A stretch of DNA of 64,000 nt from Escherichia coli (GCF_024700885.2 NZ_CP117016.1); one strand, 5' to 3'. Shown: positions 690 through 15,042, counted from the stretch's first letter. Notes: generated by a model not told the origin, from the letters alone. A program made the numbers and translations.

Positions 690-971
690 TTACCGCCGCA
701 ACCGCTCCGGCTTCTTCCAGTGGTACGTTATTTTCTCCTTCTCCCGATACATCTCCACGCGGCGACGGTAGGCCAGCAACTCAAGAACTCTGGTTCGTAT
801 GTTGCGCATATCCACGCCATTAAGTTCTATACCATCACGGCGCATCACCTCAGCAACAACACGCGCATAGTTTTCGGCTGTCACGCTGTCCGGCTGCGTG
901 GCCTGTTCGTCAGCCTGCTGGCTGATTCCGGCAACGCGGCGGATTAATCCCGTTATTTCGGCTTCTGTCAT
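690..971 (-). CDS. Hypothetical protein, last gene of packaging operon
   Basis: 93-aa ORF starting 14 bp downstream of the terminase large subunit stop on the same strand. Confidence 0.5.
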   Translation of the reverse strand: MTEAEITGLIRRVAGISQQADEQATQPDSVTAENYARVVAEVMRRDGIELNGVDMRNIRTRVLELLAYRRRVEMYREKEKITYHWKKPERLRR

Positions 972-984
972 GCTGCTGACCTCA

Positions 985-2646
985 TTACACCCCGCTAAAT
1001 TCTTCCAGTTTCTGGCGGTGGCTGTCGCTTATATCAAAAGCAAAATCCTCATGCTCTGCCTGGAATGTACCAAACGCCATCAGCGCCGCCACGCTCGGGT
1101 CTATCTTGTTCGGTGATTTTTTCTTGTTCGGCTTGATATTGGCGTTCGCGTCACTCTGCATCACGACGTTACTCATCGACCAGGACAACACCGGATCGCC
1201 ACGATGCACAATCACCCTGCGGTTAACAAAAACTTCGAACGATTTCGCCGCCGGACTGAATCTGAGGTAGGTTTGCGGGAACGGCTCCACCTCAAAACCT
1301 GCCCCCTGTAATTGCGTTCTGAGATGCGTGGCGTTCCACGTATCAAAGCCCACCAGCCTGATATTAAATTTCTCCGCGTCCTGCATGATGTCATCTCTGA
1401 TCCGGTCGTAATCAATGCAGTCGCCAGGCGTTGTGCGTATCCAGCCTGCTTTAGCCCACTGACGATAGATGGCGCGGTTTTTATTGGCGGGGTTCTGTAG
1501 CTGAAATTCCGGCAGATAGTGACGGGAAACCAGCATAATGGTTTTACCGACCGGAAAGGCATAGCACACGCTGGAAATATCGCTGGTTGATGATAAGTCC
1601 AGCCCCGCGTAACACTCCTGGCCGTGTAAATCTTCCTCCGTGAACGTTCCGGCACACTCAGCCCATGCGCCGTTACCCATCCACGGGGTAGCCCCCTGGC
1701 ACCAGATATTAAATCGCTTTGTCATCATCTCCACCCACTGCGACGGAATACCCCGCGCTTTCTGGATGGTTGAGGCCAGTTTTTCACGATCGACGGAAAC
1801 ATCAATATTAGGGTTCGCCTTTATCCACATCGCCGGATCATCAACCTCGTTTTCGTCGTCCAGTTCGTAAATCAGTACAAAAATTGAATCGTTAACCTCT
1901 TCGCCGTCCAGGATCTGGCAGCAATAATCATAGTGCTGCTTACAGGCTGAAACGACGTTGCTGCCTGATGTGGTAATGGCAAATAACAGCCCTTCGGGAC
2001 GTGCGCCCATCCCCAGCTCAAGCGCGGAATAAACGCCGTTATCGGGGTGCAAGTGGTATTCGTCCACGATGGAAAGGCTGGGGTTTGTTCCCTCGATGGT
2101 TGCCGCTTTTGCTGCCAGCGGCTTTAACAGGCTGTTGCTTTTCGGGTGTATCACCTTATGCGCCTGAATATTCACCCGCCTGCGTAACGGTCGGGATAAA
2201 AGGCACATCTGACGCGCATCATCAAAGACGATCCGCGCCTGGTCACGGCTCACCGCTGCGGTGTAGATATCCTGCTGACCGTTCTCCATAATCAGAAACC
2301 AGTTAGCCAGAATCGCGGCGGTCGTGGATTTCGCATTTTTGCGCGGCACTTCGATAAAGGCGCTCGTGTATTTGCGCCGTCCGGTGGCCTTAACCTTAAA
2401 GCCGAGGATGCACGCAAAGGCGAACTGCTGCCACGGCTCCAGCTCAATGGGTCTGCCACGCATCGGTCCTTTTACGTGCGGGCACACCCTGGAAAAGGCA
2501 ATAAACCGCTCCACAACCTCACGATCGAACGTGTAAAGGGGGCTTTTAAGGTCCGAAAAGTACCGTTTAACGGCCTGTTTCAGCCGTTTACAGGCCGGAA
2601 TTTTGCCCGTTTTTACGTCTTCTGCGTACTTATTCCAGGCGGTCAA
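985..2646 (-). CDS. terL: Phage terminase large subunit
   Basis: 553-aa ORF with an N-terminal ATPase region and C-terminal nuclease-like region typical of Terminase_1 family; overlaps terS stop. Confidence 0.9.
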   Translation of the reverse strand: MTAWNKYAEDVKTGKIPACKRLKQAVKRYFSDLKSPLYTFDREVVERFIAFSRVCPHVKGPMRGRPIELEPWQQFAFACILGFKVKATGRRKYTSAFIEVPRKNAKSTTAAILANWFLIMENGQQDIYTAAVSRDQARIVFDDARQMCLLSRPLRRRVNIQAHKVIHPKSNSLLKPLAAKAATIEGTNPSLSIVDEYHLHPDNGVYSALELGMGARPEGLLFAITTSGSNVVSACKQHYDYCCQILDGEEVNDSIFVLIYELDDENEVDDPAMWIKANPNIDVSVDREKLASTIQKARGIPSQWVEMMTKRFNIWCQGATPWMGNGAWAECAGTFTEEDLHGQECYAGLDLSSTSDISSVCYAFPVGKTIMLVSRHYLPEFQLQNPANKNRAIYRQWAKAGWIRTTPGDCIDYDRIRDDIMQDAEKFNIRLVGFDTWNATHLRTQLQGAGFEVEPFPQTYLRFSPAAKSFEVFVNRRVIVHRGDPVLSWSMSNVVMQSDANANIKPNKKKSPNKIDPSVAALMAFGTFQAEHEDFAFDISDSHRQKLEEFSGV

Positions 2647-2986
2647 GCTCGTCCTCTTCTTCTGTTTCCGGTGGGTTTTTACGGCGGCTTATCGGGTCAA
2701 AACCGAGCAAGGAGGCCATTTTTATCATCACCCTTTCAGCGTCTGATTTCGCGCTTAATGCGGGGTTTCTGCTCTCGCCGCCCTGACTGTTAACAATGCT
2801 GAACCCGCGCGCCGCAAGGTCTGCGACGGCTTTCCGGTAAATGGAGTAGTTGACACAATACAGTTCCAGATTGCTCCAGTCGGCGGGGGTCAGGTCTCCC
2901 CGTTCCGCAAGCTGCCGCGATTTTTCCCGCCACTGCTTCACGGCGATGTCATCCAGGTAGGCGGGGGCTTTCGGTGGTCTTGCCAT
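2630..2986 (-). CDS. terS: Phage terminase small subunit (P27-like)
   Basis: 118-aa ORF immediately upstream of and overlapping terL; resembles P27-family small terminases with an acidic C-terminus. Confidence 0.7.
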   Translation of the reverse strand: MARPPKAPAYLDDIAVKQWREKSRQLAERGDLTPADWSNLELYCVNYSIYRKAVADLAARGFSIVNSQGGESRNPALSAKSDAERVMIKMASLLGFDPISRRKNPPETEEEDELDRLE

Positions 2987-3274
2987 GCTTATTTTTCGTC
3001 AGATTATTTTTCAAAAAATTCCCGTGCATAAAAATTTGAGGAGGCGTTCGGTGCCCGGCGGGGTCGGGTTTGTCCTGAAAACGCCCCCCACCCCGTCATA
3101 CAGCCTCATCAGCGATTGCGGAAACATTCCATAACCTCGCGGTCACGGTCGGTTAATCGCTTCGCTGTGATGCGTTCTGCGCGTCCTGACGCTTTATCTT
3201 TATGCCCTGTTTCCTGTGTCTTCCATGCGTCACGCTGCCTTATAAGTCCACGGATAAGGCGGTTTTGTTCCCGC
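2987..3274. other. Candidate cos/packaging site region between HNH gene and terS
   Basis: 288-bp non-coding gap in an HNH-cos-terS-terL arrangement (as in HK97-like cos phages); GC-rich segment cggtgcccggcggggtcggg...ccccccaccccgtc. Confidence 0.3.
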
Positions 3275-3715
3275 TCATTCATCAGCGTCATACATCCAGT
3301 TATTGCGGTTAGCGGCCCGTTCTTCCTCTTCACGAAATCCACCTGCGGCACGCTTGCTTTTTGTTGCCGGATCAAGCCATTTCGTTTTCTGGTTATGACA
3401 CGCCTGGCACAATGGTTGATGGTTCCATTCGGGCCAGAAGAGAACATCATCACCGCCATTAATCGGGATAATGTGATCCACCACCACGGCGGGCGTATAT
3501 ATCCCCTTCTCAAGGCATCGCACGCATAACGGGTTTTTACTCAGATACATGGCGCGGTATTTGTCCCACTGTCTGGAATATCCACGCGCGCGGCGGTGTC
3601 CTCGTCTGGCATCCTCTGCACGCCATGCCGCCCGCCTGTGCTCCTCACACTTGCCGGATTTAACGCGCCTGTTACAGCCTGGTTCTGTGCATCGTCTTAA
3701 TGGTTGCCACGGCAT
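3275..3715 (-). CDS. HNH endonuclease (terminase-associated)
   Basis: 146-aa ORF with Cys pairs and the DHIIP...N..LC..CH..K HNH motif, positioned upstream of terS. Confidence 0.85.
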   Translation of the reverse strand: MPWQPLRRCTEPGCNRRVKSGKCEEHRRAAWRAEDARRGHRRARGYSRQWDKYRAMYLSKNPLCVRCLEKGIYTPAVVVDHIIPINGGDDVLFWPEWNHQPLCQACHNQKTKWLDPATKSKRAAGGFREEEERAANRNNWMYDADE

Positions 3716-4011
3716 CAGTACACCCCCACATCACGGTAAGCCGTCCAGAGTGCGCCTATCGTCATGGGTACGCGTGTTTTTGCGTTATCCGCGACAATCT
3801 GGCGATTTTCATACAGGTGAGCGATAAACATCATGCAGCCAATCTTTATGGCTGGCGTGAACTCCAGCCCGTCATCAAAGCGCCTGCCTATGTGTATCTG
3901 GCACGCCTCAAGCGATGCGGCAATGTATCCGCTGATTAACTGGTCTTCATCGTCGCCATCGATGCGGCAATGGAGTTTCACTTCTTCCAGGGTGATAAGT
4001 TCTTCTGTCAT
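3715..4011 (-). CDS. Head-tail connector protein (gp6-like)
   Basis: 98-aa ORF, MTEELITLEEVK... resembles phage gp6-like head-tail connector family; translationally coupled to neighbours. Confidence 0.65.
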   Translation of the reverse strand: MTEELITLEEVKLHCRIDGDDEDQLISGYIAASLEACQIHIGRRFDDGLEFTPAIKIGCMMFIAHLYENRQIVADNAKTRVPMTIGALWTAYRDVGVY

Positions 4012-4346
4012 TTTTCCGCGCCCTCACGACAAAGAATTTCAAGGCGTGTCCTGGCGGCATCCGGCAGCGGCTGCCCGATGATATTCAGTACACGCCCCGC
4101 CAGCGGCCCCGTACTGACCTTTATCCGGCTGGTGGCGTTGATGTCCTTCCGGTACCGTATCCAGATCCTTACGGTACCAATCGCCAGCTCTGCGCCCGAT
4201 GAAATGGCCTCCTTGCTGCTGACCATGTTCACGCTTGCCCAGAGTGTGTGACCGTCCTCCCACGTTTCGAGTATTTCGCCGGTTATATCCCTGGTCTGTT
4301 TCAGGGTCTGAATCGTTATCCTGTCACGCAGTCGCCCTATGTTCAT
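4008..4346 (-). CDS. Head-tail adaptor / head closure protein
   Basis: ORF 4008..4388; probable start MNIGRLRDRITIQ at 4346, directly after portal stop, typical N-terminus of head-tail joining proteins. Confidence 0.65.
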   Translation of the reverse strand: MNIGRLRDRITIQTLKQTRDITGEILETWEDGHTLWASVNMVSSKEAISSGAELAIGTVRIWIRYRKDINATSRIKVSTGPLAGRVLNIIGQPLPDAARTRLEILCREGAEK

Positions 4347-5554
4347 TCCGGTTTTTCTCCCTCGCTGATTTTTACTTCCTGTTTCCATGCCTGGCTGAAC
4401 TCATCACCACCATCACGCGGTGACAGACCTTCACGTTCGCGGGCTTCGTTCGGACACATAACGCCGGATTTGATGCCGCGCTCATAGGTGGCAAAGCGTT
4501 CGCCAGGTGTGGCCCGTAACAGGTCCGCGCTGTCAAACTCCACCTGATACCGGATACCAGGTACAGGCGAGGCCACCAGCAGGGCGTTTTTTATCTGCTG
4601 CTCAAAGTTCGCCAGCCACGGGCGCATCGTCATGGTGAGAAATGCGCGGCTTGCCTCGCTGAAATTGCTGTAGGTGCTGTTGCTGTATTCCTGCAAAAAA
4701 ATCGGCGAGACGTTGAACATTCGGGCGATGTCTTCAATGGTGAAGCGACGGGAGGCCAGCCATTCAGCATCCTGATTACTCATGCCCAGCTGCTGATAGC
4801 TCATACCCCCTTCAAGGATGGGCGTTTTTCCGGCGTTTCTGGCCCCTTTGTAGCGTTCCAGTGCGGCTAATGCCTGTTTGCCCTTCACGCCGTCCAGCCA
4901 TTCGCCTGACGTGATAACCCCTGCCGCCATCATGCCATCACGCATCACGCTCGCGCCGTGGCGTTGTTGGGCCAGCCCAAGCCCCAGCGATTCGCGGCAG
5001 ATGGTTACAGGTGAGCACCCCATAAAGCCGTCATCCGTGGAGTAACGAAGGTGAAGTACTTCCCACGGTAAATAGTTGCGGGTGTTTCCGGTGTAGGCGT
5101 CAGTGATGCAGTAGCGCCAGTTGTGTTCGCCTGTCTGCTCCACGTTCACCGACTGCGGCGGGTAAGGATGTAAAGCCGCCGGAAAACCATCACGCCCCCA
5201 CTGAATCACCGCATAAGCATTACCGTTTAACAGGCAGTGGCGGATCATCATTCGCTTAAACTGGTAGGGGGTTTGCCATGCGTTCGGGCGCTCGTTGAGG
5301 ATGTGATCGACCGGATGAGAATCAAGCCACTCGCGGGCCTCCTTCCCCTTCTCATTGCGTACCAGGTACAGGTAACACGGCATGGTAGCCACCGCCTCAG
5401 AGATGACCGTCACGGCGTTCATGACGGCGGGCAGTGATTCCGCTGTCCCCGATGATACGTACTCACCCGCCCCCGTGTTCGATGTGCCAGCCAGCGCCAT
5501 AAATTCATCCAGCGTCATGCTGCGCTGCTCTTTTTTTCTTCTGAAAGGCCACAT
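4343..5554 (-). CDS. Portal protein (HK97 family)
   Basis: 403-aa ORF sitting between the prohead protease and adaptor genes, resembling HK97-family portal proteins. Confidence 0.85.
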   Translation of the reverse strand: MWPFRRKKEQRSMTLDEFMALAGTSNTGAGEYVSSGTAESLPAVMNAVTVISEAVATMPCYLYLVRNEKGKEAREWLDSHPVDHILNERPNAWQTPYQFKRMMIRHCLLNGNAYAVIQWGRDGFPAALHPYPPQSVNVEQTGEHNWRYCITDAYTGNTRNYLPWEVLHLRYSTDDGFMGCSPVTICRESLGLGLAQQRHGASVMRDGMMAAGVITSGEWLDGVKGKQALAALERYKGARNAGKTPILEGGMSYQQLGMSNQDAEWLASRRFTIEDIARMFNVSPIFLQEYSNSTYSNFSEASRAFLTMTMRPWLANFEQQIKNALLVASPVPGIRYQVEFDSADLLRATPGERFATYERGIKSGVMCPNEAREREGLSPRDGGDEFSQAWKQEVKISEGEKPE

Positions 5555-5555
5555 A

Positions 5556-6128
5556 TCACACCCCCGCTAAATCCACCCACCAGCGGCGATTATCCGCACG
5601 CGGCATTTTTTCGGGGTGCTGCTCATACAGGGAACGGCGGGCCAGCTCCACGCCGGAATCGGGGTAAGCCGGTACCGATGTAACGGTAATTTCGTACAGT
5701 TCCGCCACCAGCACGGTGCGCACGCATGGATCTGTTGTGGTATCCCATACATCCTTACGGGAGCGAAAGCCAAAGCTCATCCCCGAGATGTCCCCACGCT
5801 TAACCAGTTCGATAACGTCGCGCCCTGTACTGGTATCCGGTGGGGTCAGTTCAAAGCGTAACCCTGTTTCGTCCTCTTCCAGTTTCAGCGTGCCGGAACG
5901 GGTGCGCCCCAGTAACATGCTGTGGTCATGCTCATACAGGCCGCGAACGTCATTACCCGCCGCAAGCCACTCAGTAAACGCCCCCCGCTGGAATTTTTCG
6001 TAAAACTCCCCCCATAGCAGTTCTGAAAGCTTATCCCAGCGAACAACGTAGCCCGTCAGCGTACCGGCTCCGCTGGTAGTGATTTCCGATGACCGGATTT
6101 CCATACTCTTCATAATTTTTTCACCCAT
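5556..6128 (-). CDS. Prohead maturation protease (HK97 family)
   Basis: 190-aa ORF immediately downstream of the capsid gene, resembling HK97 prohead protease. Confidence 0.85.
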   Translation of the reverse strand: MGEKIMKSMEIRSSEITTSGAGTLTGYVVRWDKLSELLWGEFYEKFQRGAFTEWLAAGNDVRGLYEHDHSMLLGRTRSGTLKLEEDETGLRFELTPPDTSTGRDVIELVKRGDISGMSFGFRSRKDVWDTTTDPCVRTVLVAELYEITVTSVPAYPDSGVELARRSLYEQHPEKMPRADNRRWWVDLAGV

Positions 6129-6167
6129 AAAACACTAAAGGGGCTTTTAAGCCCCTTCTGTATGCTG

Positions 6168-7325
6168 TTAATCGTCGTCCTGTGGCAGTTCCAGAATCTT
6201 GATCGCGTTCGAATCCACCACGCCACCGCCTAAATATTTCTGCGTGAAAATTTTGATGAAGCCCGGCTCTGTGAGGTTGTCCGGTCTGGTGCGAACACCT
6301 GTTTCGTGATCAACAATGTAGTAACCGCGTTTGAAGTCACCCAGGGCAATAACGTTATCCGGCATAAACTCCAGATATTCGACCGGAAGGCCCAGTAACG
6401 TATCAGGATCACCCGCCTGTAAACGGTCGCGCCAGATGTAATCACCGTTCGCGTTCTTCACCTTCTGAAGTTTTGCCGCCGTCGTGGAGTTAACCACCCA
6501 GACCGCGTTTTTGCGGTATTTTTTACGTAATGCAAATTTCAGGTCGATCAGCGGGTCCGCAGATGTCCACGCCAGAGATTCGGAAGGTTTAATTACCTGC
6601 AACGTACCAAAATCACGCTCTTTGTCGTTCTTCTCTGCACGGGGTACGGATAAAAAGCCTTTTGCTTTTTTGTCACCGTCGCCCACAACCAGATCGCTTT
6701 CTTCGGTTTCCGTGAAGTTGTCGCCAATCTCGCCCGTCAGCCATGAAAGGATGTCCACATCGGAAAAATCCACGATTTCCTGCGTGGTGCGCGGGTACGC
6801 ATAGACCGGATACAGCTTAATGCTCACCTCGTTAATCTGCGGGGTGCTGGTCTGTTCGCGTGCCTTACCCTCTTCACCGTGGTTAACGGTCGCACCGCCA
6901 GCGGAAACAAGCTGCTTAAACTCGTTGCTGCTGATTTTCTTCACGGTACAGATGCGGCGCATGGTGGATTCATCCGTCAGCATTCGCATGATTTCGGTGT
7001 TCAGTTCGGGGATAACGGTATAACCACCATCAGCGGGAACGCCTGTACTTAATGCGCGGGTTTCACCTGTCAGAATGTAGTGACGTAGTTCGGCTGGGTC
7101 AGTGGTCTGACTGCTTTTACCTGGCTTGCTGCGCTCTTCGTCTGCAATGGCTTCAAGGCGGGAAATGTCTTTATCGAGGGATTCAGCTTTAGCGCGTAAT
7201 TCGTCAAATTTTGCGCCCTCAGCATCGTTAAGACTGCGGTTTTCTTTTTCCGCGTTCTCCAGCATGTCGCGCATCTGATTTTTAATGGCGGTTTTCTGCT
7301 GGCGTAATTCGATTATTCTCGGCAT
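6168..7325 (-). CDS. Major capsid protein (HK97 fold) with N-terminal delta/scaffold domain
   Basis: 385-aa ORF with a coiled-coil-rich N-terminus followed by HK97-like capsid region. Confidence 0.85.
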   Translation of the reverse strand: MPRIIELRQQKTAIKNQMRDMLENAEKENRSLNDAEGAKFDELRAKAESLDKDISRLEAIADEERSKPGKSSQTTDPAELRHYILTGETRALSTGVPADGGYTVIPELNTEIMRMLTDESTMRRICTVKKISSNEFKQLVSAGGATVNHGEEGKAREQTSTPQINEVSIKLYPVYAYPRTTQEIVDFSDVDILSWLTGEIGDNFTETEESDLVVGDGDKKAKGFLSVPRAEKNDKERDFGTLQVIKPSESLAWTSADPLIDLKFALRKKYRKNAVWVVNSTTAAKLQKVKNANGDYIWRDRLQAGDPDTLLGLPVEYLEFMPDNVIALGDFKRGYYIVDHETGVRTRPDNLTEPGFIKIFTQKYLGGGVVDSNAIKILELPQDDD

Positions 7326-7584
7326 AAAAAAAGTCCTGGGGTTAAGTAAGGAACTCCAGGACGCGGCAAAAACTCAACCGTTTTTCATAAGGAAATCAGC
7401 AATCGCACCGATCGTTTTCCCGCCTGGTAATGAATATTGGCGAGAACATTAACAGGCGGAAAAGTGGCCCCAGCGTCCTGGCACCACGGGCGAGAATAAT
7501 CATGATTCAGTTCGGGTAAAATATGCCGATCCGCTCAGTGAACAACGTGGAACAACCACGAACAAATAATTTACAAAACATGAC
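7326..7584 (-). promoter_or_regulatory. Upstream region of capsid/packaging operon containing 10-bp phased AACAA repeats (7541..7565)
   Basis: 259-bp non-coding gap between an upstream terminator and the capsid start; gtgaacaacgtggaacaaccacgaacaa. Confidence 0.45.
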
Positions 7585-7605
7585 AAAAAGCCGGATTGCT
7601 CCGGC
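7585..7605 (-). terminator. Rho-independent terminator ending the replication/early operon
   Basis: Minus-strand hairpin gccggagcaatccggc followed by TTTTT, immediately after the stop of the 93-aa ORF. Confidence 0.6.
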
Positions 7606-7612
7606 TGTGTGA

Positions 7613-7894
7613 TTATCTGTCCTGGTAATTTCGCCATATTTCATTACCAGCACCATCCATACCCATTTCGGCATAAGTGCGATCGACCGCCTTTTTCAGG
7701 TCTCCGTAGTTATCCGGCGGCTCCGGTGGCCTCTGTGCCTTCCTGGAACATTCCAGCCGTCGCATCGTGATGTGATGCCGTTCCTTGTCTGTCTCCACCA
7801 GTTGCATGACTTCACCCCATCGCGCCGACGCTCTCCGGTAAAAGCCTTTCGCCTCCAGTTCTTCCGCTATGCGGTCATGTACCATCGTCCCCAC
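7613..7894 (-). CDS. Hypothetical protein
   Basis: 93-aa ORF in operon with the SSB gene. Confidence 0.5.
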   Translation of the reverse strand: MGTMVHDRIAEELEAKGFYRRASARWGEVMQLVETDKERHHITMRRLECSRKAQRPPEPPDNYGDLKKAVDRTYAEMGMDGAGNEIWRNYQDR

Positions 7895-7897
7895 CCC

Positions 7898-8308
7898 TCA
7901 GAACGGAATATCATCACCGTAAGGGTCATCGCCTCCCGCTGGTGGCTGATTACCCTGTGTGCCTGTGGTCTTGCGTCGGCTCCCACCAGGACGTGCCGCA
8001 CGGGCACTGATTACGCTGTCTGCAATAACCTGATAACCCTGCCGCGTTTCCCCGTTCTGTCCGGTCCACTGGCTGACCTGCATCGTGCCGGATACGCTGG
8101 CAACGTCGCCTTTTTGATGTTTAGCCAGGAAGTCGGCCTGCTTACCAAATGCGATGACCGATAGCCATAACGTCGCCTGTCCATCCTGTGCCTGGCTGCA
8201 TGGCAGCGATACCGCCATACGCGCCAGCGTCATCGGTGTACCCTTGCTGGTCTGTTTTACCTGCGGGTCGTCCACCAGCCGCCCGTAAGCTGCTATCTGT
8301 GCTGTCAT
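7898..8308 (-). CDS. ssb: Single-stranded DNA-binding protein (SSB-like)
   Basis: 136-aa ORF with OB-fold-like core, Gly/Pro-rich linker and C-terminal DDIPF tail as in bacterial SSB. Confidence 0.75.
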   Translation of the reverse strand: MTAQIAAYGRLVDDPQVKQTSKGTPMTLARMAVSLPCSQAQDGQATLWLSVIAFGKQADFLAKHQKGDVASVSGTMQVSQWTGQNGETRQGYQVIADSVISARAARPGGSRRKTTGTQGNQPPAGGDDPYGDDIPF

Positions 8309-8583
8309 GATTCCACCTCTCCGGTTTTAACGTTGATGGTTGTTACCTGTTCCGCTTCGGCAATCTCCCGCTCTGTCAGCGTGGCAAAATTTGCCGCCGT
8401 CGTGGTCATGAATGCGCTTATCAGTTTGGGATGTGCTTTCGCGTATCCTTCCCCCGCGTGGCGGTCTATCGTTCTGATTGCCACCTTTAAAGCGTGCTCT
8501 GTCATGTCTAACGCGCGATATTTCGGTTCTGTTCTGTCTCTGCGTTTTTTGAGTGATTTATTAAATTTCCCTGAAGTGTGCAT
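8305..8583 (-). CDS. Hypothetical protein
   Basis: 92-aa ORF between the iteron origin and the SSB gene, overlapping the SSB start. Confidence 0.5.
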   Translation of the reverse strand: MHTSGKFNKSLKKRRDRTEPKYRALDMTEHALKVAIRTIDRHAGEGYAKAHPKLISAFMTTTAANFATLTEREIAEAEQVTTINVKTGEVES

Positions 8584-8629
8584 ATTTATTTTTACCCCCT
8601 CGTTTAAAAAGTTTTGAGTTGTGCCTCCC

Positions 8630-8860
8630 CTTGTCTACCTTATCTACCTTAGTGGCCCTCATACCAGTAATGGCGCGGCTTTCAGCGGGGTAGAGTGCTT
8701 TTATCCACTATCTACCCCGTGTCTACCTCCCTGTCTGATTCAGGTAAAATCAGGTAGAGAGGGTAGATAGTGGGTAGACAGTAAAAAAAGGTTATCTACC
8801 TAACTTAATGCACTGAATTAAATGTATTTTTCTTTACTCAGGTAGACAGGGTAGACAGCA
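8630..8860. repeat. Iteron array, putative island replication origin
   Basis: Ten or more copies of T(A/G)TCTACC in both orientations (e.g. tgtctacct, tatctacct, caggtagagagggtagatagtgggtagacag, caggtagacagggtagacag) immediately 3' of the primase gene. Confidence 0.7.
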
Positions 8861-8871
8861 ATTACAAAAAA

Positions 8872-10626
8872 TTATAAAAACGCGTCGCACTCGTCTGTTG
8901 TTATTGCGTTAGTCTGCGTTACTCCCTTAACTTTCCGCGTAATATATTCATGTCCGTAAACTTTCGCGGCTGGCTTCATAGCCTTGCCAAAGTCATTTAC
9001 GTTTAGCGGTTTGCTCCTGCCTGCGTACGCCATAAACGCCAGATAGACGCGGTAAAGGCTGTTTCTGGTCGTGTACTTCACTGAATCGCCACCGCCGCCC
9101 ATCATCAGGCCGCGTGCTTCCTCCAGAAAATTCAGGAACTGGCAAAACTCAATAACCGGATCCGTCTGTTGCTTTATTGCCAGAGCTTCATCACCGTCAC
9201 GCTGTTCCAGTAGTAAAGCCCGTGCCTTCTCAGGGTCGGTAAAGTTCGCCAGCAATCGGCGGATAATGACAGGGATTTCAGCCGCGATCTTTTCCGGTAG
9301 CTCCCTGTCTTTTTCGGCCTCACTGACGATATTGTCGAAACGGAAAATCACGCGACGACGTGCCACACCTCCGGCCCGTTCGGTGAATATCATCGGGTTA
9401 TTGTTGGTCGCCAGCACCACCGCCCTGATTACCGCCGTGAAACGCTTTTCGTATTTCGGGTTAATTTCCACGGGGTCACCGCCCGTGATTTTCTTGATGC
9501 CCGTTCCTTCGCCTGTATATTTCGGCTGGTCAGCCAGGACGATAAGACGACTCCCGACAACCTGCGCACGTCCACCAGCATCATCAAGCGATGTCATTTC
9601 AGCGCTTACCGTGTTCTGTTTCCCTGCCAGAAGGCTGGCTATGTGTGTGAATGTACTTTTACCGCTCCCGCCGTCTCCGGTGGCCTCAATAAACATCTGC
9701 CAGTCGTACCGGTTCGCCATAATCATGTACAGCGCGGCACATATACGCATCATCTTGCGCGGGTCTTTTCCGGCTGCGTGCTCAAGCCATTTATGAAAGT
9801 TTGGCGCGTTATCGCGGATGTTCTCCCCTGGTGCTGGTGGCGTGTACTCAATGCCGTTGTGCGTGGTGATCCAGTTCTCCGGCGTGTGCGGGGAAAATTC
9901 CCCCGTTTTCAGGTCAAGCGCACCATTGGCGAACGGCAACAAATCGCCGGACGGCTCGCCCATTGGTTCGGCAATAACTTTTAACGCTTCCACGGCGTTA
10001 TTGATTACGCGCTTGCTGAAAGTGGCCCTGTGCTCTGAATAGATCGCCACCATTTCGCGGCTAAGTTCCATTGTGCTGACCGGACACCATACCCCGCCGC
10101 GCCATACGTGAACGATTTCACTTTCAGGATGTACGCAAACGCCATCAAAGCGATCGGCAAGCAGTTGCGCGCGCTCACTGTCCGCCATCTGCGAAAGTTG
10201 CGCCTTTTGCTTTACCGGAAGCTCAATGACCAGACCATCAGAAAGATTCTGGCGCTCACGGGCCAGATATTCGCGCCAGTTCTCCACCTTCTGACCGTGC
10301 ATACCATCAGGGTAAAAATTTGCATCCTGTACGCCTGCCGCCGCCAGCTTCTGACCAATCGCCTTTATCATTACTGGCGCAAGATATCCGGCCCTGAATA
10401 TGCGCACGGATTTTCTGCCTTCCGGCACAATTTGCAGCTTATCCAGTTCGGATAACTGCTGCTCCCCAAGCCACACAGGAGGCTCATTATCTCCGGCCAT
10501 ACGCGCGTCATGTTCCTGCCATTGTTTTGCGTGTGACCAGGCATCACTACCCGCAAAAATAATGACTTCTGTTTCTTTGTGTTTTATGCCGCGTGACTGC
10601 TGTTTTACGTTCGGTGCCAGTTTCAT
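8872..10626 (-). CDS. Replication initiator: phage/plasmid primase with D5/P4-type NTPase (helicase) domain
   Basis: 584-aa ORF with Walker A GDGGSGKST and downstream motifs typical of P4-family primase C-terminal domain; followed by iterons. Confidence 0.8.
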   Translation of the reverse strand: MKLAPNVKQQSRGIKHKETEVIIFAGSDAWSHAKQWQEHDARMAGDNEPPVWLGEQQLSELDKLQIVPEGRKSVRIFRAGYLAPVMIKAIGQKLAAAGVQDANFYPDGMHGQKVENWREYLARERQNLSDGLVIELPVKQKAQLSQMADSERAQLLADRFDGVCVHPESEIVHVWRGGVWCPVSTMELSREMVAIYSEHRATFSKRVINNAVEALKVIAEPMGEPSGDLLPFANGALDLKTGEFSPHTPENWITTHNGIEYTPPAPGENIRDNAPNFHKWLEHAAGKDPRKMMRICAALYMIMANRYDWQMFIEATGDGGSGKSTFTHIASLLAGKQNTVSAEMTSLDDAGGRAQVVGSRLIVLADQPKYTGEGTGIKKITGGDPVEINPKYEKRFTAVIRAVVLATNNNPMIFTERAGGVARRRVIFRFDNIVSEAEKDRELPEKIAAEIPVIIRRLLANFTDPEKARALLLEQRDGDEALAIKQQTDPVIEFCQFLNFLEEARGLMMGGGGDSVKYTTRNSLYRVYLAFMAYAGRSKPLNVNDFGKAMKPAAKVYGHEYITRKVKGVTQTNAITTDECDAFL

Positions 10627-10922
10627 TTTTTACCCCTGAATCCGTTAATCATGGTTTTCAGCTTCTGGATGTTTGCCCGTGCCCTGGCGTTGCTGGTGGA
10701 CACGTTATGCGGCGCGGTCTGTACCAGAGAAAAATCACGCCGGAACTGATAAACAGGCATCACGCAATCATATTCGTAACCTTCACGGCGGTAGGTTACG
10801 CGCCGTTCTTCCACGCCCTTAATCATTACCGTGCCGCCGTACTGGTCGCGGTAAATATCGCCGCGCGTAAATTTAGGGTGAGTGTTGCCACTGGCAGTTA
10901 AGCCAGAATATTTAAGTTTCAT
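10623..10922 (-). CDS. Hypothetical small protein (accessory operon gene 7)
   Basis: 99-aa ORF whose stop overlaps the primase start (ATGA). Confidence 0.5.
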   Translation of the reverse strand: MKLKYSGLTASGNTHPKFTRGDIYRDQYGGTVMIKGVEERRVTYRREGYEYDCVMPVYQFRRDFSLVQTAPHNVSTSNARARANIQKLKTMINGFRGKK

Positions 10923-10927
10923 TATTT

Positions 10928-11161
10928 TTATTCTCCGGTGTGCTGTTCTTTATATCTGTCGTGCAATAGATCTATTTCTTGCAGTTCCATTATTACAGGC
11001 TCAAGAAGCGTTATTAATGCCGTGGCAATTCTTGATTTTTGTTTGTCGCGTTCATTGTCGCCAAGTGTTTCAAGCCATATGCGCAATATTTCCAGCATGT
11101 TTTCACTGTGAGAAAGTGCAAGAAATGCGCGGTCTATTGTTTCGTGGTAAATATCACGCAT
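10928..11161 (-). CDS. Hypothetical small protein (accessory operon gene 6)
   Basis: 77-aa ORF, same strand, tightly packed. Confidence 0.45.
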   Translation of the reverse strand: MRDIYHETIDRAFLALSHSENMLEILRIWLETLGDNERDKQKSRIATALITLLEPVIMELQEIDLLHDRYKEQHTGE

Positions 11162-12016: not shown

Positions 12017-12182
12017 CGCTCAGGAATACGCAGACCTCACCGCTAAGGCGTTTAAGTAAGCCGATGATTGCCCCTGATTCGCTGTCGGTCATCATGCCAG
12101 GGTAATCCTCTGCCAGTGCGCAAATAACTTCGATTTGGTGGGCGCGTTCTGCTGCCTGTTGTAGTGTGATTTCCTGGCTCAT
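11952..12182 (-). CDS. Hypothetical small protein (accessory operon gene 2)
   Basis: 76-aa ORF, start overlaps the stop of the upstream gene. Confidence 0.45.
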   Translation of the reverse strand: MSQEITLQQAAERAHQIEVICALAEDYPGMMTDSESGAIIGLLKRLSGEVCVFLSDEQERRTLISNEKKCGGVHVQ

Positions 12183-12379
12183 AAGCCTACCCCCTGACGA
12201 ATACGGGCAGCAAATACCATCACGCAGCCAGCCGGAGATTGCTGGCGTGCTTCCTGTTCGCTGGTGGCCTCAATGGTAATCACGCGCGGTTGTGCCGTGC
12301 TCAGGGCGATAAAACGCCAGATGTATTTATTCAGGTTGTGCGAGTCCCGCCCTTGCGGGTGTGTGGTATGATTTCTCAT
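12179..12379 (-). CDS. Hypothetical small protein, first gene of leftward operon (Cro-like position)
   Basis: 66-aa ORF starting MRNHTT at 12379; the 340-aa ORF in the track is read-through across the regulatory region. Confidence 0.4.
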   Translation of the reverse strand: MRNHTTHPQGRDSHNLNKYIWRFIALSTAQPRVITIEATSEQEARQQSPAGCVMVFAARIRQGVGL

Positions 12380-12476
12380 AGCTACCTCGATACTTTCGCT
12401 ATCGTTGGTGGTTAGAAGCCCGGTTAGTGTTAGCGCACTGCCGGGTTTCGTCGTTTCTGCACCTTGCGCCAACAAG

Positions 12477-12528
12477 GTGTTGAACACCAATTTAAACCCA
12501 GGTGTTAAACACGTCAAGTGTTGAACAC
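12477..12528. promoter_or_regulatory. Three palindromic operators GTGTTnAACAC between divergent promoters
   Basis: gtgttgaacac (12477..12487), gtgttaaacac (12502..12512), gtgttgaacac (12518..12528) in the gap between divergent gene sets. Confidence 0.6.
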
Positions 12529-12578
12529 TTATTTTTTTTCCTGCATACTGCATTTGTTTTTTATGAGGGGTACACCAC

Positions 12579-12758
12579 ATGGCGACAAAAGCGGTAAACG
12601 CAAAATCACAAACCGTTGCGGCAAGGGTTCCGCATGAAGTTATGAACAATGTTGAGGCGGTAAAAATGCCTGGCGAAAGTACGGGGCAATTTGTTACTGC
12701 GGCATTAAAACGAGAAGTTGAATATCGCCAGCGGCGCAAGGCCAAAGAACCAGAGTAA
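12579..12758 (+). CDS. Putative ribbon-helix-helix transcriptional regulator
   Basis: 59-aa ORF (below the track cutoff) with a Shine-Dalgarno-like gagggg upstream; beta-strand/helix/helix pattern typical of Arc/MetJ/CopG family; adjacent to operators. Confidence 0.5.
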   Translation: MATKAVNAKSQTVAARVPHEVMNNVEAVKMPGESTGQFVTAALKREVEYRQRRKAKEPE

Positions 12759-12800
12759 TCACCATCAGCGCCGTGGTGTAAGGTATTACGGCGCATTGCT

Positions 12801-12989
12801 ATGCAGGACAACACAATGACCGATAAAGAATTGACCAAAACATTATCACCGGCACGGAAAAGACGGCGCAGAAAGATAGAGCATGAATCAGAAAGATTCG
12901 CGCCATGTGCTTTTGCCCTTGAGCAATTCCTTAAAGAGTACAGGGAAAAGCGCTCATTGCAGGTATGGCAACGAACTGAACCAGACTGA
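12801..12989 (+). CDS. Hypothetical small basic protein
   Basis: 62-aa ORF downstream of the RHH gene on the same strand, followed by a terminator. Confidence 0.4.
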   Translation: MQDNTMTDKELTKTLSPARKRRRRKIEHESERFAPCAFALEQFLKEYREKRSLQVWQRTEPD

Positions 12990-13083
12990 TTGCATTGCCC
13001 ACCAGCCTGATAACGGCTATCATCCCCGTGCTTATGTTTGGGATCACACACACAAACGGCGCAGCGGGTTATCTGTTCAGAAA

Positions 13084-13113
13084 GGCGGCTCCATTTCGGG
13101 GCCGCTTTTTTTA
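13084..13113 (+). terminator. Rho-independent terminator of rightward regulatory transcript
   Basis: Hairpin gcggctcc-attt-cggggccgc followed by TTTTTTT. Confidence 0.55.
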
Positions 13114-13258
13114 TACCTGAAAAACCCCAATTTTGTTGTTTTTCAGTTTCACCAGGGCGAACGAATCCCCGCCCACGTTCTGGCGTATATTCAATCTTCA
13201 TGGTTATAGCTCTGTGTTCAGATGATTGATGTGTGGCGGCTGCGTGCCGCCAGCGTGA

Positions 13259-13812: not shown

Positions 13813-15042
13813 TTATTTTCTTCTGGCTACGGGTAGCGTGGTTACGTTTTCATGTGTTCCCGCCAGTATCCCTAACCGCTCCGTCCACATATCCAGCGCA
13901 TTGCGTTTCGCATCCAGATAACGGGAATGATTATAAACTCGCTGCATTCCTGGCATCTGGTGGCCTGTAAGCTGCTCCACGACATGCGGATCAACGCCTA
14001 AATCGTTCAGCATGGTTGTAAAGGTGCGCCGGATGTCATGCAGTGACCAGTGAGGGTGATTAAGCCTCCTGTACGCTAATCTTCCATACTGCGATACGCT
14101 GGCCTCCTGTTTCACTTCCCCCAGCAATAAGCCCGTGTGCCTGTTCTGCTCCACCAGCTGCGTGACGAACGGCAGGATCGCTTCCGGTATGGGCCGGAAT
14201 ATTGCGACCTTCGTTTTGCTGTGCTCCTTCGGAACGGTCCATAGCATTTCCGTAAAATCCCACTCCCCGATCTCCGATAACCTCAGTTCTACCGTTCTGG
14301 CTCCGAAGACAATCAGGAGGCGGATTAACGCGACGTAGTAAGGGGAGAATATTTTTTTGTCCAGTGCCTGCAATAATTCGCCAAGTTCTTTGTTACTTAA
14401 GACACGTTCGCTTATATCCGGTTTTTTCCCAACGTCCGCAACGTTCAGATCGTCCAGAACGTTGCTGATTGCATAGCGCCGCCTACGGCAGAACTTAAGC
14501 GCCTGTTTGCACGCCTGTAGCACGAATCCGGCAGTAACAGGCGTTCGCTTTGCCACCTGGTCAAAACAGGCCAGCCAGTGCCGTAGCTCGCATTTATCCA
14601 GCGGCATAGCACCAATCTGCTGTATTACGTGATTATTAAGTCGCCTTTTCAGGGCGATATAATCCACGCGGTTTTCCTTTACGTAATACTCAAGCCAGTA
14701 GGTGAGCGCATCGCCAACCGTTACGGGCTTTAACGCTTCCTGTACGGTGTAATTCATCTCATGACGTGGATTTTTCCCCTCAGCCAGCCATGTGCGACAC
14801 TGTGCGGCTTTTTCCCTGGCTGCTTTCAGGCTCAGATCAGGATAACTTCCCAGCTTAATGCGTTCGGGTCGTGTCTCCCTTCCCGTTCCGGCCCTGTATG
14901 TGAAATACCAGGTCAATTTCCCTGATGTTAAATATTTCACGCTCAGGTTTCCGCCATCACTATAAAACGTGTTTTTCTCCGCTGGCTTACCATGAAGTTT
15001 CCTTAGCAAGGTATCGCTCAGTTTGTTCATTGCTCTGCTCAC
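13813..15042 (-). CDS. int: Tyrosine-type site-specific integrase (P4-like)
   Basis: 409-aa ORF with catalytic-domain motifs (HDIRRTF, GHQ, VYNHSRY) at the island end next to the chromosomal junction. Confidence 0.92.
   Translation of the reverse strand: MSRAMNKLSDTLLRKLHGKPAEKNTFYSDGGNLSVKYLTSGKLTWYFTYRAGTGRETRPERIKLGSYPDLSLKAAREKAAQCRTWLAEGKNPRHEMNYTVQEALKPVTVGDALTYWLEYYVKENRVDYIALKRRLNNHVIQQIGAMPLDKCELRHWLACFDQVAKRTPVTAGFVLQACKQALKFCRRRRYAISNVLDDLNVADVGKKPDISERVLSNKELGELLQALDKKIFSPYYVALIRLLIVFGARTVELRLSEIGEWDFTEMLWTVPKEHSKTKVAIFRPIPEAILPFVTQLVEQNRHTGLLLGEVKQEASVSQYGRLAYRRLNHPHWSLHDIRRTFTTMLNDLGVDPHVVEQLTGHQMPGMQRVYNHSRYLDAKRNALDMWTERLGILAGTHENVTTLPVARRK

Follow-up and report, generated by a model that had tools for sequence, protein, structure and literature searches.

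The replicons of PICIs and SaPIs share a layout in which iterons come immediately after the rep gene and form two sets, with an AT-rich region between them (PMC6092414; PMC9371898). The SaPI origin contains 6-12 iterons directly after the rep ORF; its centre is AT-rich and is flanked on each side by two or more iterons, which are opposite in orientation (PMC9371898). In E. coli, the rep-ori segment of EcCICFT073 is able to maintain a temperature-sensitive plasmid at 44 C in the helper-free strain DH5alpha (Fillol-Salom et al. 2018, PMC6092414). Deletion of rep from this plasmid resulted in no colonies, and deletion of ori resulted in significantly fewer colonies without abolishing them (PMC6092414). 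Within the island itself, deletion of pri-rep cut transfer approximately 100-fold, again without abolishing it, and the induction of PICIs requires an AlpA circuit that is triggered by the helper (PMC6092414). A later paper places Primase, SSB, and DUF5906 genes, together with mapped origins, in the replication category of Gram-negative PICIs.

A more distant point of comparison is P4, whose cis sites we took from the P4 GenBank annotation. These are ori and crr, which are located 4.5 kb apart, and crr is an iteron array that directly follows the gene for the alpha protein.

Here we analyzed a rep gene and the iteron array adjacent to it in a 64-kb stretch of DNA that we call the window. The near-identical rep-ori of EcCICFT073 replicated a plasmid in the 2018 study, and the finding is therefore already known. 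The replicon type has been described and functionally tested, and it carries little weight as a discovery. The locus is informative in other respects, because the same replicon serves two satellite body plans, a classical PICI (EcCICFT073) and a capsid-forming PICI (cf-PICI), and because its relatives provide a natural set of initiator/iteron specificity pairs.

The island and its closest described relative

The window is E. coli chromosome, and its positions 7600-11000 are 100% identical to E. coli strain MLI114. At least 80% of this segment is carried by 364 of 5,426 complete E. coli genomes. The RefSeq annotation of the identical region in MLI114 contains an island of approximately 15 kb that splits tqsA and has unidirectional genes transcribed from the minus strand of the window. 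The early genes, in the order of transcription, are those for an integrase, an HTH regulator that resembles AlpA, and small ORFs, some of which are Icd-like. These are followed by a DUF4222 gene, a gene for a 'DNA primase family protein', a small ORF, and genes for an SSB and PerC. The last genes encode a major capsid protein, a prohead protease, a portal, head-closure and connector proteins, an HNH protein, TerS, and TerL. There are no tail genes in the island according to this annotation. The combination of int, AlpA, and capsid-to-terminase genes with no tail is the published body plan of capsid-forming PICIs. An int gene, an alpA-type regulator, packaging and capsid genes of its own, and a specific attachment site, which characterize Gram-negative PICIs and cf-PICIs, are all found here. 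Judged by its gene content, the island is a capsid-forming PICI, a phage satellite, inserted in tqsA of E. coli. A scan of the island against Rfam yielded 0 families at gathering score.

The coordinates of the replication genes and of the parts of the origin are given in Table 1. The 3' end of the DUF4222 gene overlaps the start of rep by 4 nt (10623-10626), and in annotated relatives the DUF4222 gene precedes Rep whatever the class of the helicase (primase-type, RepA-type, or DUF927-type).

Table 1. Features of the replication module. Positions are counted from the first letter of the window; strand is left empty where none applies.
Feature	Position	Strand	Details
Probable replication origin, 11 iterons in both orientations	8632..8857		226 bp; 9 exact TRTCTACC
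Proximal iteron pair, TGTCTACC x2	8841..8857	-	9-bp register; copies 8857-8850, 8848-8841
AT-rich block, presumed DNA unwinding element	8801..8840		40 bp; 22.5% GC vs 51% for the island
Second iteron set	8753..8800		8793-8800 (+), 8773-8780 (-), 8762-8769 (-), 8753-8760 (-; degenerate copy TCTCTACC)
Third iteron set	8689..8727		8720-8727 (+), 8709-8716 (+), 8689-8696 (-; degenerate copy ACTCTACC)
Non-iteron spacer, contains GCTGAAAGCCGCGCCATTACTG	8649..8688		40 bp; kept even in alleles with other iterons
Distal iteron pair, TGTCTACC + TATCTACC	8632..8648	+	TRTCTACC matches
Pri-Rep, initiator + SF3 helicase	8872..10626	-	584 aa; WP_000761836.1 'DNA primase family protein'
Rep N-terminal module, aa 1-135	10222..10626	-	predicted Toprim-like; no zinc ribbon, no DxD
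Rep D5_N domain, aa 153-282	9781..10170	-	Pfam PF08706 E=1.1e-15
Rep SF3 ATPase/helicase core, aa 295-460	9247..9744	-	Pfam DUF5906 (316-417)
Rep C-terminal winged helix, putative origin-binding domain, aa 487-584	8875..9168	-	Pfam Pox_D5 (487-576)
SSB, island-encoded, OB fold	7898..8308	-	136 aa; Pfam SSB E=4e-17
ORF92, between origin and SSB gene	8305..8583	-	phrog_1231, unknown function
DUF4222 gene	10623..10922	-	Pfam DUF4222 E=1.6e-24

Alignment with EcCICFT073 showed that 581 of the 584 amino acids of Rep are identical to its Pri-Rep (99.5%), the differences being T463A, L473I, and E579D. The intergenic region that contains the origin is identical at 272 of 288 bp (94%), and all nine exact iterons (9/9) occur at the same offsets, with two of them swapping A and G at the degenerate position. 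The SSB of EcCICFT073 is 98.5% identical to that of the window and ORF92 only 73%. In both elements the replicon is flanked by DUF4222, a small ORF, SSB, and PerC. The morphogenesis genes of EcCICFT073 are limited to capsid-like and decoration-like ones and the element lies at another chromosomal site, next to roxA, whereas the island in the window has a full module of capsid, portal, and terminase genes of the cf-PICI type and sits in tqsA.

Rep as an initiator-helicase

Rep matches the Pfam profiles D5_N, DUF5906, and Pox_D5, the TIGR01613 profile, and phrog_864 (E=1e-175), and has a Walker A motif, GDGGSGKS, at aa 317-324. A phmmer comparison aligned the helicase core with SaPI5 PriRep (PDB 7OLA, E=3.8e-15), and aa 488-579 match the origin-binding domain of P4 alpha (PDB 1KA8, E=7e-7). 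Because of these Pfam domains and the matches to 7OLA and 1KA8, we regard Rep as an initiator-helicase of the kind represented by P4 alpha and SaPI Rep, and on the same homology its C-terminal domain would be an origin-recognition winged helix. Rep is thereby the SF3 helicase initiator that is part of a PICI or SaPI replicon.

The likeness to these two systems is partial. SaPI Rep and PriRep are self-loading SF3 helicases with an iteron-binding C-terminal winged helix and an ATPase core homologous to that of Rep, but outside this core the identity is low and the N-terminal domain is a different one. Rep has the architecture of P4 alpha, with D5_N, an SF3 helicase, and a C-terminal origin-binding domain, and the C-terminal domains of the two proteins are 31% identical. 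Two domains that precede D5_N in P4 alpha, a zinc ribbon and a Toprim_3 primase domain, are missing from Rep.

Organization of the origin

The first-pass annotation had described ten or more TRTCTACC iterons in both orientations directly after the rep stop codon. Their orientation and position were borne out, with 14 bp separating the stop codon (8872-8874) from the first iteron (8857-8850). Their number holds when degenerate copies are included, as there are 10 copies with at most one mismatch and 11 with a TCTACC core, but only 9 are exact. Both of the degenerate copies identified in Table 1 have kept the core. The 64-kb window contains 10 exact TRTCTACC words and 9 of the 10 lie within 8632-8857. 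By contrast, shuffled versions of the window contained a mean of 1.7 +/- 1.3 such words over the whole 64 kb, with a maximum of 5. The expectation by chance in 226 bp is approximately 0.006, which gives a Poisson probability of approximately 3e-26 for nine or more.

Read on the gene strand, the array consists of two forward iterons, the AT-rich block, four iterons in the order R F F F, three in the order R R F, the 40-bp spacer, and a final R R pair. Adjacent iterons are 9-11 bp apart, or about one helical turn. The iterons 3' of rep flank the AT-rich region with at least two on each side, as in the layout of PICI and SaPI replicons. The far side of the block opens with a reverse copy, and its nine copies are in mixed orientation. 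This arrangement of rep followed by iterons around an AT-rich block, inside a PICI, agrees with the earlier suggestion that the locus has the layout of an autonomously replicating phage satellite. It differs from SaPI origins in that the iterons are 8-mers rather than 5-6-mers and in that the array runs well past the AT-rich block on one side only.

Three other candidate features were set aside. An IHF-like site is found in the AT-rich block of several alleles (0-1 mismatch) and is absent from the window and from CFT073. A DnaA box, TTATCCAC, at 8701-8708 matches 8 of 9 positions of the consensus but is kept only in the CFT073-type allele. The single-stranded DNA of the array has a folding z of -3.9; this merely reflects the inverted iterons and was thus not counted as evidence.

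The iteron of P4, TGTTCACC, matches TGTCTACC at 6 of 8 positions. Sister PICI alleles use exactly this P4 word, which is annotated as 'ori type 1 repeat' in the P4 genome. Both the array in the window and P4 crr, which contains type 1 repeats, lie directly downstream of the gene for the initiator, and the distal iterons have a crr-like arrangement of an iteron, CTGAAA, a spacer of 35-40 nt, and an inverted iteron pair. The array could accordingly be a crr-like cis enhancer of replication, with the true site of initiation elsewhere in the island, just as P4 ori is distant from crr. We consider this very improbable. P4 has two separate sites, whereas the window has one contiguous TRTCTACC array. 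The island lacks a second iteron cluster, and the matches with at most one mismatch that it contains beyond the array are isolated copies at background density. The array also has within it an iteron-flanked AT-rich block, which is typical of origins, and in the CFT073 element cloned rep with the adjacent ori suffices for replication.

Exchange of the origin together with the helicase

We compared the window with an O157:H7 island of the cf-PICI type (e.g. strain 1130, L008). Both islands contain DUF4222, the N-terminal Rep module, ORF92, and SSB, and both have an array after the rep stop codon. Unlike the window, the O157:H7 island has a RepA/AAA_25 helicase and the iteron AAAGTGAG, and has no Pox_D5 C-terminal domain. 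It may be the same type of island as the published cf-PICI EcCIEDL933. The two sequences align at 93% over 8001-8559 (SSB and ORF92) and at 81% over 10252-10881 (N-terminal Rep module and DUF4222), with no alignment between 8559 and 10252. Thus the segment 8560-10251, comprising the origin, the C-terminal domain, and the helicase, is replaced in O157 by the RepA/AAA_25 helicase with its AAAGTGAG iterons. The left border of this exchangeable cassette is the 5' end of ORF92. Identical breakpoints were found in comparisons with alleles that have TGTTCACC iterons. These shared breakpoints show that the origin, the C-terminal domain, and the helicase move as one unit, as expected of a cognate pair.

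The position of the array led us to consider whether it is mainly a transcriptional operator or promoter of the operon comprising ORF92, SSB, PerC, and capsid genes, bound by Rep or another regulator, and not an origin. The array fills the whole intergenic region upstream of ORF92 and ends approximately 50 bp before the ORF92 start. Initiators that bind iterons often autoregulate, as in iteron plasmids, which also speaks for regulation. However, a scan of 7300-9100 detected neither a sigma-70-like promoter on the gene strand nor a terminator, and the lone weak promoter match on the plus strand was below the shuffle expectation. Moreover, the array travels with the helicase and the C-terminal domain rather than with the conserved downstream genes, it contains an AT-rich block of the unwinding type, and the plasmid is less well maintained when the near-identical ori of CFT073 is deleted. 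A purely regulatory array is therefore unlikely, and a dual role in which an origin also has a regulatory function is possible.

Covariation of Rep and its iterons

Roughly 2,500 E. coli genomes contain a match. We examined seven E. coli relatives spread over the range of identity and 80 loci from other species. All seven E. coli loci (7/7) have an iteron array in the same place, and the word that is repeated depends on the Rep allele. TRTCTACC is found in the window and L005, CCTCTACC in L002-L004, TGTTCACC in L006 and L007, and AAAGTGAG behind the RepA/AAA_25 helicase of the O157:H7 island, L008. Outside E. coli, a clear array is present in approximately 40 loci from other Enterobacterales and Aeromonas, with the top 7-mer occurring 5-11 times. 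In control tiles the top 7-mer occurred 2-3 times on average, with occasional maxima up to 5. In a large group from Xenorhabdus, Photorhabdus, and Proteus with the C-terminal motif TKFGESLPKIM, the 350 bp next to the stop codon contain no array, and the layout is thus not universal for this protein family.

The orientation order of the iterons is similar across loci and is identical in several that have different words; the order '--+---++-++', for example, is common to the window, Klebsiella pneumoniae, and Raoultella sp. In most of the 27 origins compared, whatever their iteron word, the first iteron pair is followed by an AT-rich block, and in all of them (27/27) the minimum GC content in 30 bp is 7-23%.

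The word itself follows the C-terminal domain of Rep. The motif FGKA[MV]K pairs with TRTCTACC in E. coli, Xenorhabdus, Pantoea, Yersinia, and Raoultella, and RFGxDMPGAM pairs with TGTTCACC. Variants of the latter class with longer wings pair with TGTCTACC in Kluyvera or with TGTCCACC in Serratia, and NKFAEGMESAM pairs with ATGAACAC or GTATACC. Across more than 40 relatives, the iteron word and the C-terminal domain of Rep vary together, and the architecture of the origin is constant.

Within E. coli, Rep of the window and of L002 are 98% identical overall and have four differences in the C-terminal domain. Two of these, N544A and G547S, split all TR-type from all CC-type alleles, with the iterons changing from TR to CC. 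This split is a correlation among related sequences. N544 and G547, located where the presumed recognition helix begins, are candidate specificity residues and together may form a two-residue switch. The specificity pairs in this natural set could serve the engineering of orthogonal satellite replicons.

Satellite islands carry packaging signals and this island encodes HNH, TerS, and TerL, so that the array might be thought a packaging (pac/cos) site or else a chance or degenerate repeat with no role in replication. This is scarcely credible given an enrichment far beyond chance and a word that covaries with the Rep C-terminal domain. A packaging site is also disfavoured because the same origin is present in EcCICFT073, whose packaging module differs.

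Replication of the island

The SSB gene reported in the first-pass annotation was confirmed by the Pfam profile (Table 1), by TIGR00621 (57.7 bits, with a cutoff of 53.95), and by a C-terminus, PYGDDIPF, that has the host-type DDIPF tip. The protein thus combines the OB fold and the acidic DDIPF-type tip of a bacterial SSB, and is divergent from E. coli SSB (1EQQ, E=1e-6). The DDIPF tip of E. coli SSB docks host replication proteins. The presence of this tip in the island SSB fits replication by host rather than helper enzymes.

It is very likely that the locus is the replication module of an E. coli cf-PICI. After induction triggered by the helper and excision, the 584-aa Rep would be made, and its C-terminal winged helix would recognize TRTCTACC iterons 14 bp past its own stop codon. 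By homology with SaPI Rep and P4 alpha, Rep would act as a hexameric, self-loading SF3 helicase on the iteron sets that flank 8801-8840. Its hexamers would melt this AT-rich block and unwind outward, the island SSB would coat the exposed strands and, through its DDIPF tip, connect them to proteins of the host replisome, and host enzymes would synthesize the DNA and probably prime it too. The module is supported by its sequence anatomy, its homologous domains, and the way in which initiator and origin covary. In the literature, a plasmid with a 99.5%-identical Rep replicates without a helper in a rep- and ori-dependent manner. We infer the mode of binding, the melting of the AT-rich block, the role of SSB, and the source of priming.

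The first-pass annotation had proposed that replication is largely independent of the helper. This agrees with the behavior of the replication machinery, since EcCICFT073 rep-ori functions in DH5alpha, and does not extend to induction. The experiment that it suggested, cloning rep with the iterons into an ori-less vector, has in effect been carried out on the near-identical EcCICFT073 (PMC6092414).

The N-terminal module of Rep

The same annotation called the gene a primase. There is indeed an initiator-helicase gene at 8872..10626, but its N-terminal domain has no primase hallmarks. TIGR01613, 'primase_Cterm', covers aa 229-495 of Rep, which is the helicase part, and the name 'primase' is therefore inherited through annotation from helicase homology. 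This widely used label is probably wrong for the N-terminal domain. Neither Zn_Ribbon_Prim nor Toprim_3 matches Rep or 22 homologues of its N-terminus, and both match P4 alpha. A Pfam search at E<=10 with 23 members of the N-terminal module returned no family, and hhalign found no similarity between this module and the primase region of P4 alpha (probability 1.5%).

The module also has no Cys/His cluster. In the predicted secondary structure, strand 1 ends with A25-G26 and strand 3 with A79-G80. On this prediction there is no DnaG/Toprim catalytic Glu after strand 1 and no DxD after strand 3. A zinc domain is also absent, and E20, where strand 1 begins, is the only acidic residue that is invariant. 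The lack of primase hallmarks in this domain leaves the priming step unexplained. Our tentative suggestion, which we hold to be somewhat less probable than its opposite, is that the 'Pri' half is a catalytically dead Toprim-like adaptor of approximately 135 aa. This adaptor would stay constant with DUF4222 while three unrelated classes of helicase and their cognate origins swap behind it, and the host would supply the priming, for example through DnaG or the PriA primosome recruited via the SSB DDIPF tail.

The N-terminal module belongs to a narrow family, for which a set of 1.8 billion proteins contains 79 cluster representatives. The helicase classes found behind it are SF3/D5, RepA/AAA_25, and DUF927, so that it also fronts Rep helicases of the RepA and DUF927 types. 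The module is itself mosaic, being 49-98% identical among alleles whose helicases are 95-99% identical.

Helicase and origin are exchanged as a single cassette

Comparison of the window with the island of the E. coli O157:H7 strain 1130 (L008) and with two other related E. coli loci (L006/L007) showed that the helicase, the C-terminal domain and the origin are swapped as a single cassette (8560-10251) between islands that are otherwise homologous around the exchanged segment. The flanks of this cassette are 81-93% identical and consist of DUF4222 and the Rep N-terminal module on one side and ORF92, a small open reading frame, and SSB on the other. In the O157 island, the cassette contains a RepA/AAA_25 helicase and its iterons are AAAGTGAG.

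Sequence comparison indicates that the Rep N-terminal module recombines independently of the remaining Rep. Identity in this module ranges from 49 to 98% across alleles with a helicase domain that is 95-99% identical, and the module is 65% identical to that of an allele with a helicase that is only 57% identical. In three database proteins (P0033, P0036 and P0047) either an SSB domain or PerC follows the module as a direct fusion. Such proteins resemble products of a deletion that removed the helicase and the origin, although they could also be genuine fusions.

Origin elements and repeats in Rep relatives

Two non-iteron elements of the origin are listed in the Table. The spacer is kept among alleles with differing iterons (the window, EcCICFT073 and L002-L005, which are related E. 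coli loci), and the crr unit of phage P4 has CTGAAA and its position in common with it. The DnaA-box-like site is kept in EcCICFT073 and not in the other alleles.

A large group of Rep relatives from Xenorhabdus, Photorhabdus and Proteus (L030-L063) has the C-terminal motif TKFGESLPKIM. No iteron array was found within 350 bp downstream of the rep stop codon in this group, from which we infer that the origin must be elsewhere or built on a much weaker repeat. The Xenorhabdus vietnamensis locus (L020) contains a second tile with nine copies of the iteron word AGGTAGA outside the region downstream of rep. This tile equals the origin itself in AGGTAGA richness; it may represent either another array or an element in tandem.

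Features of the island and its replication locus
Feature	Window position	Strand	Details
Head and packaging module/island parts	690-7325 and 13813-15042		
PerC-family regulator gene	7613-7894	-	Pfam E=5e-43; directly after SSB gene
Non-iteron spacer	8649-8688		40 bp; GCTGAAAGCCGCGCCATTACTG...
DnaA-box-like site	8701-8708		TTATCCAC; 8/9 consensus match; between iterons
Rep N-terminal module	10222-10626		aa 1-135
340-aa open frame	12179-13201	-	Covers RefSeq Icd-like gene and icd-like pseudogene

Island body plan and other genes

The island has a complete head and packaging set (MCP, protease, portal, head closure, connector, HNH, TerS and TerL) and contains no tail genes. Thus, it is a cf-PICI-type satellite, located in tqsA. 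The window begins only ~30 bp inside the island end and therefore one att site is outside the window. Published work has linked PICI homologues of PerC with how the LEE virulence island is controlled. The 340-aa open frame has no Pfam match, and in the RefSeq annotation a YlcI/YnfO gene lies inside it on the opposite strand.
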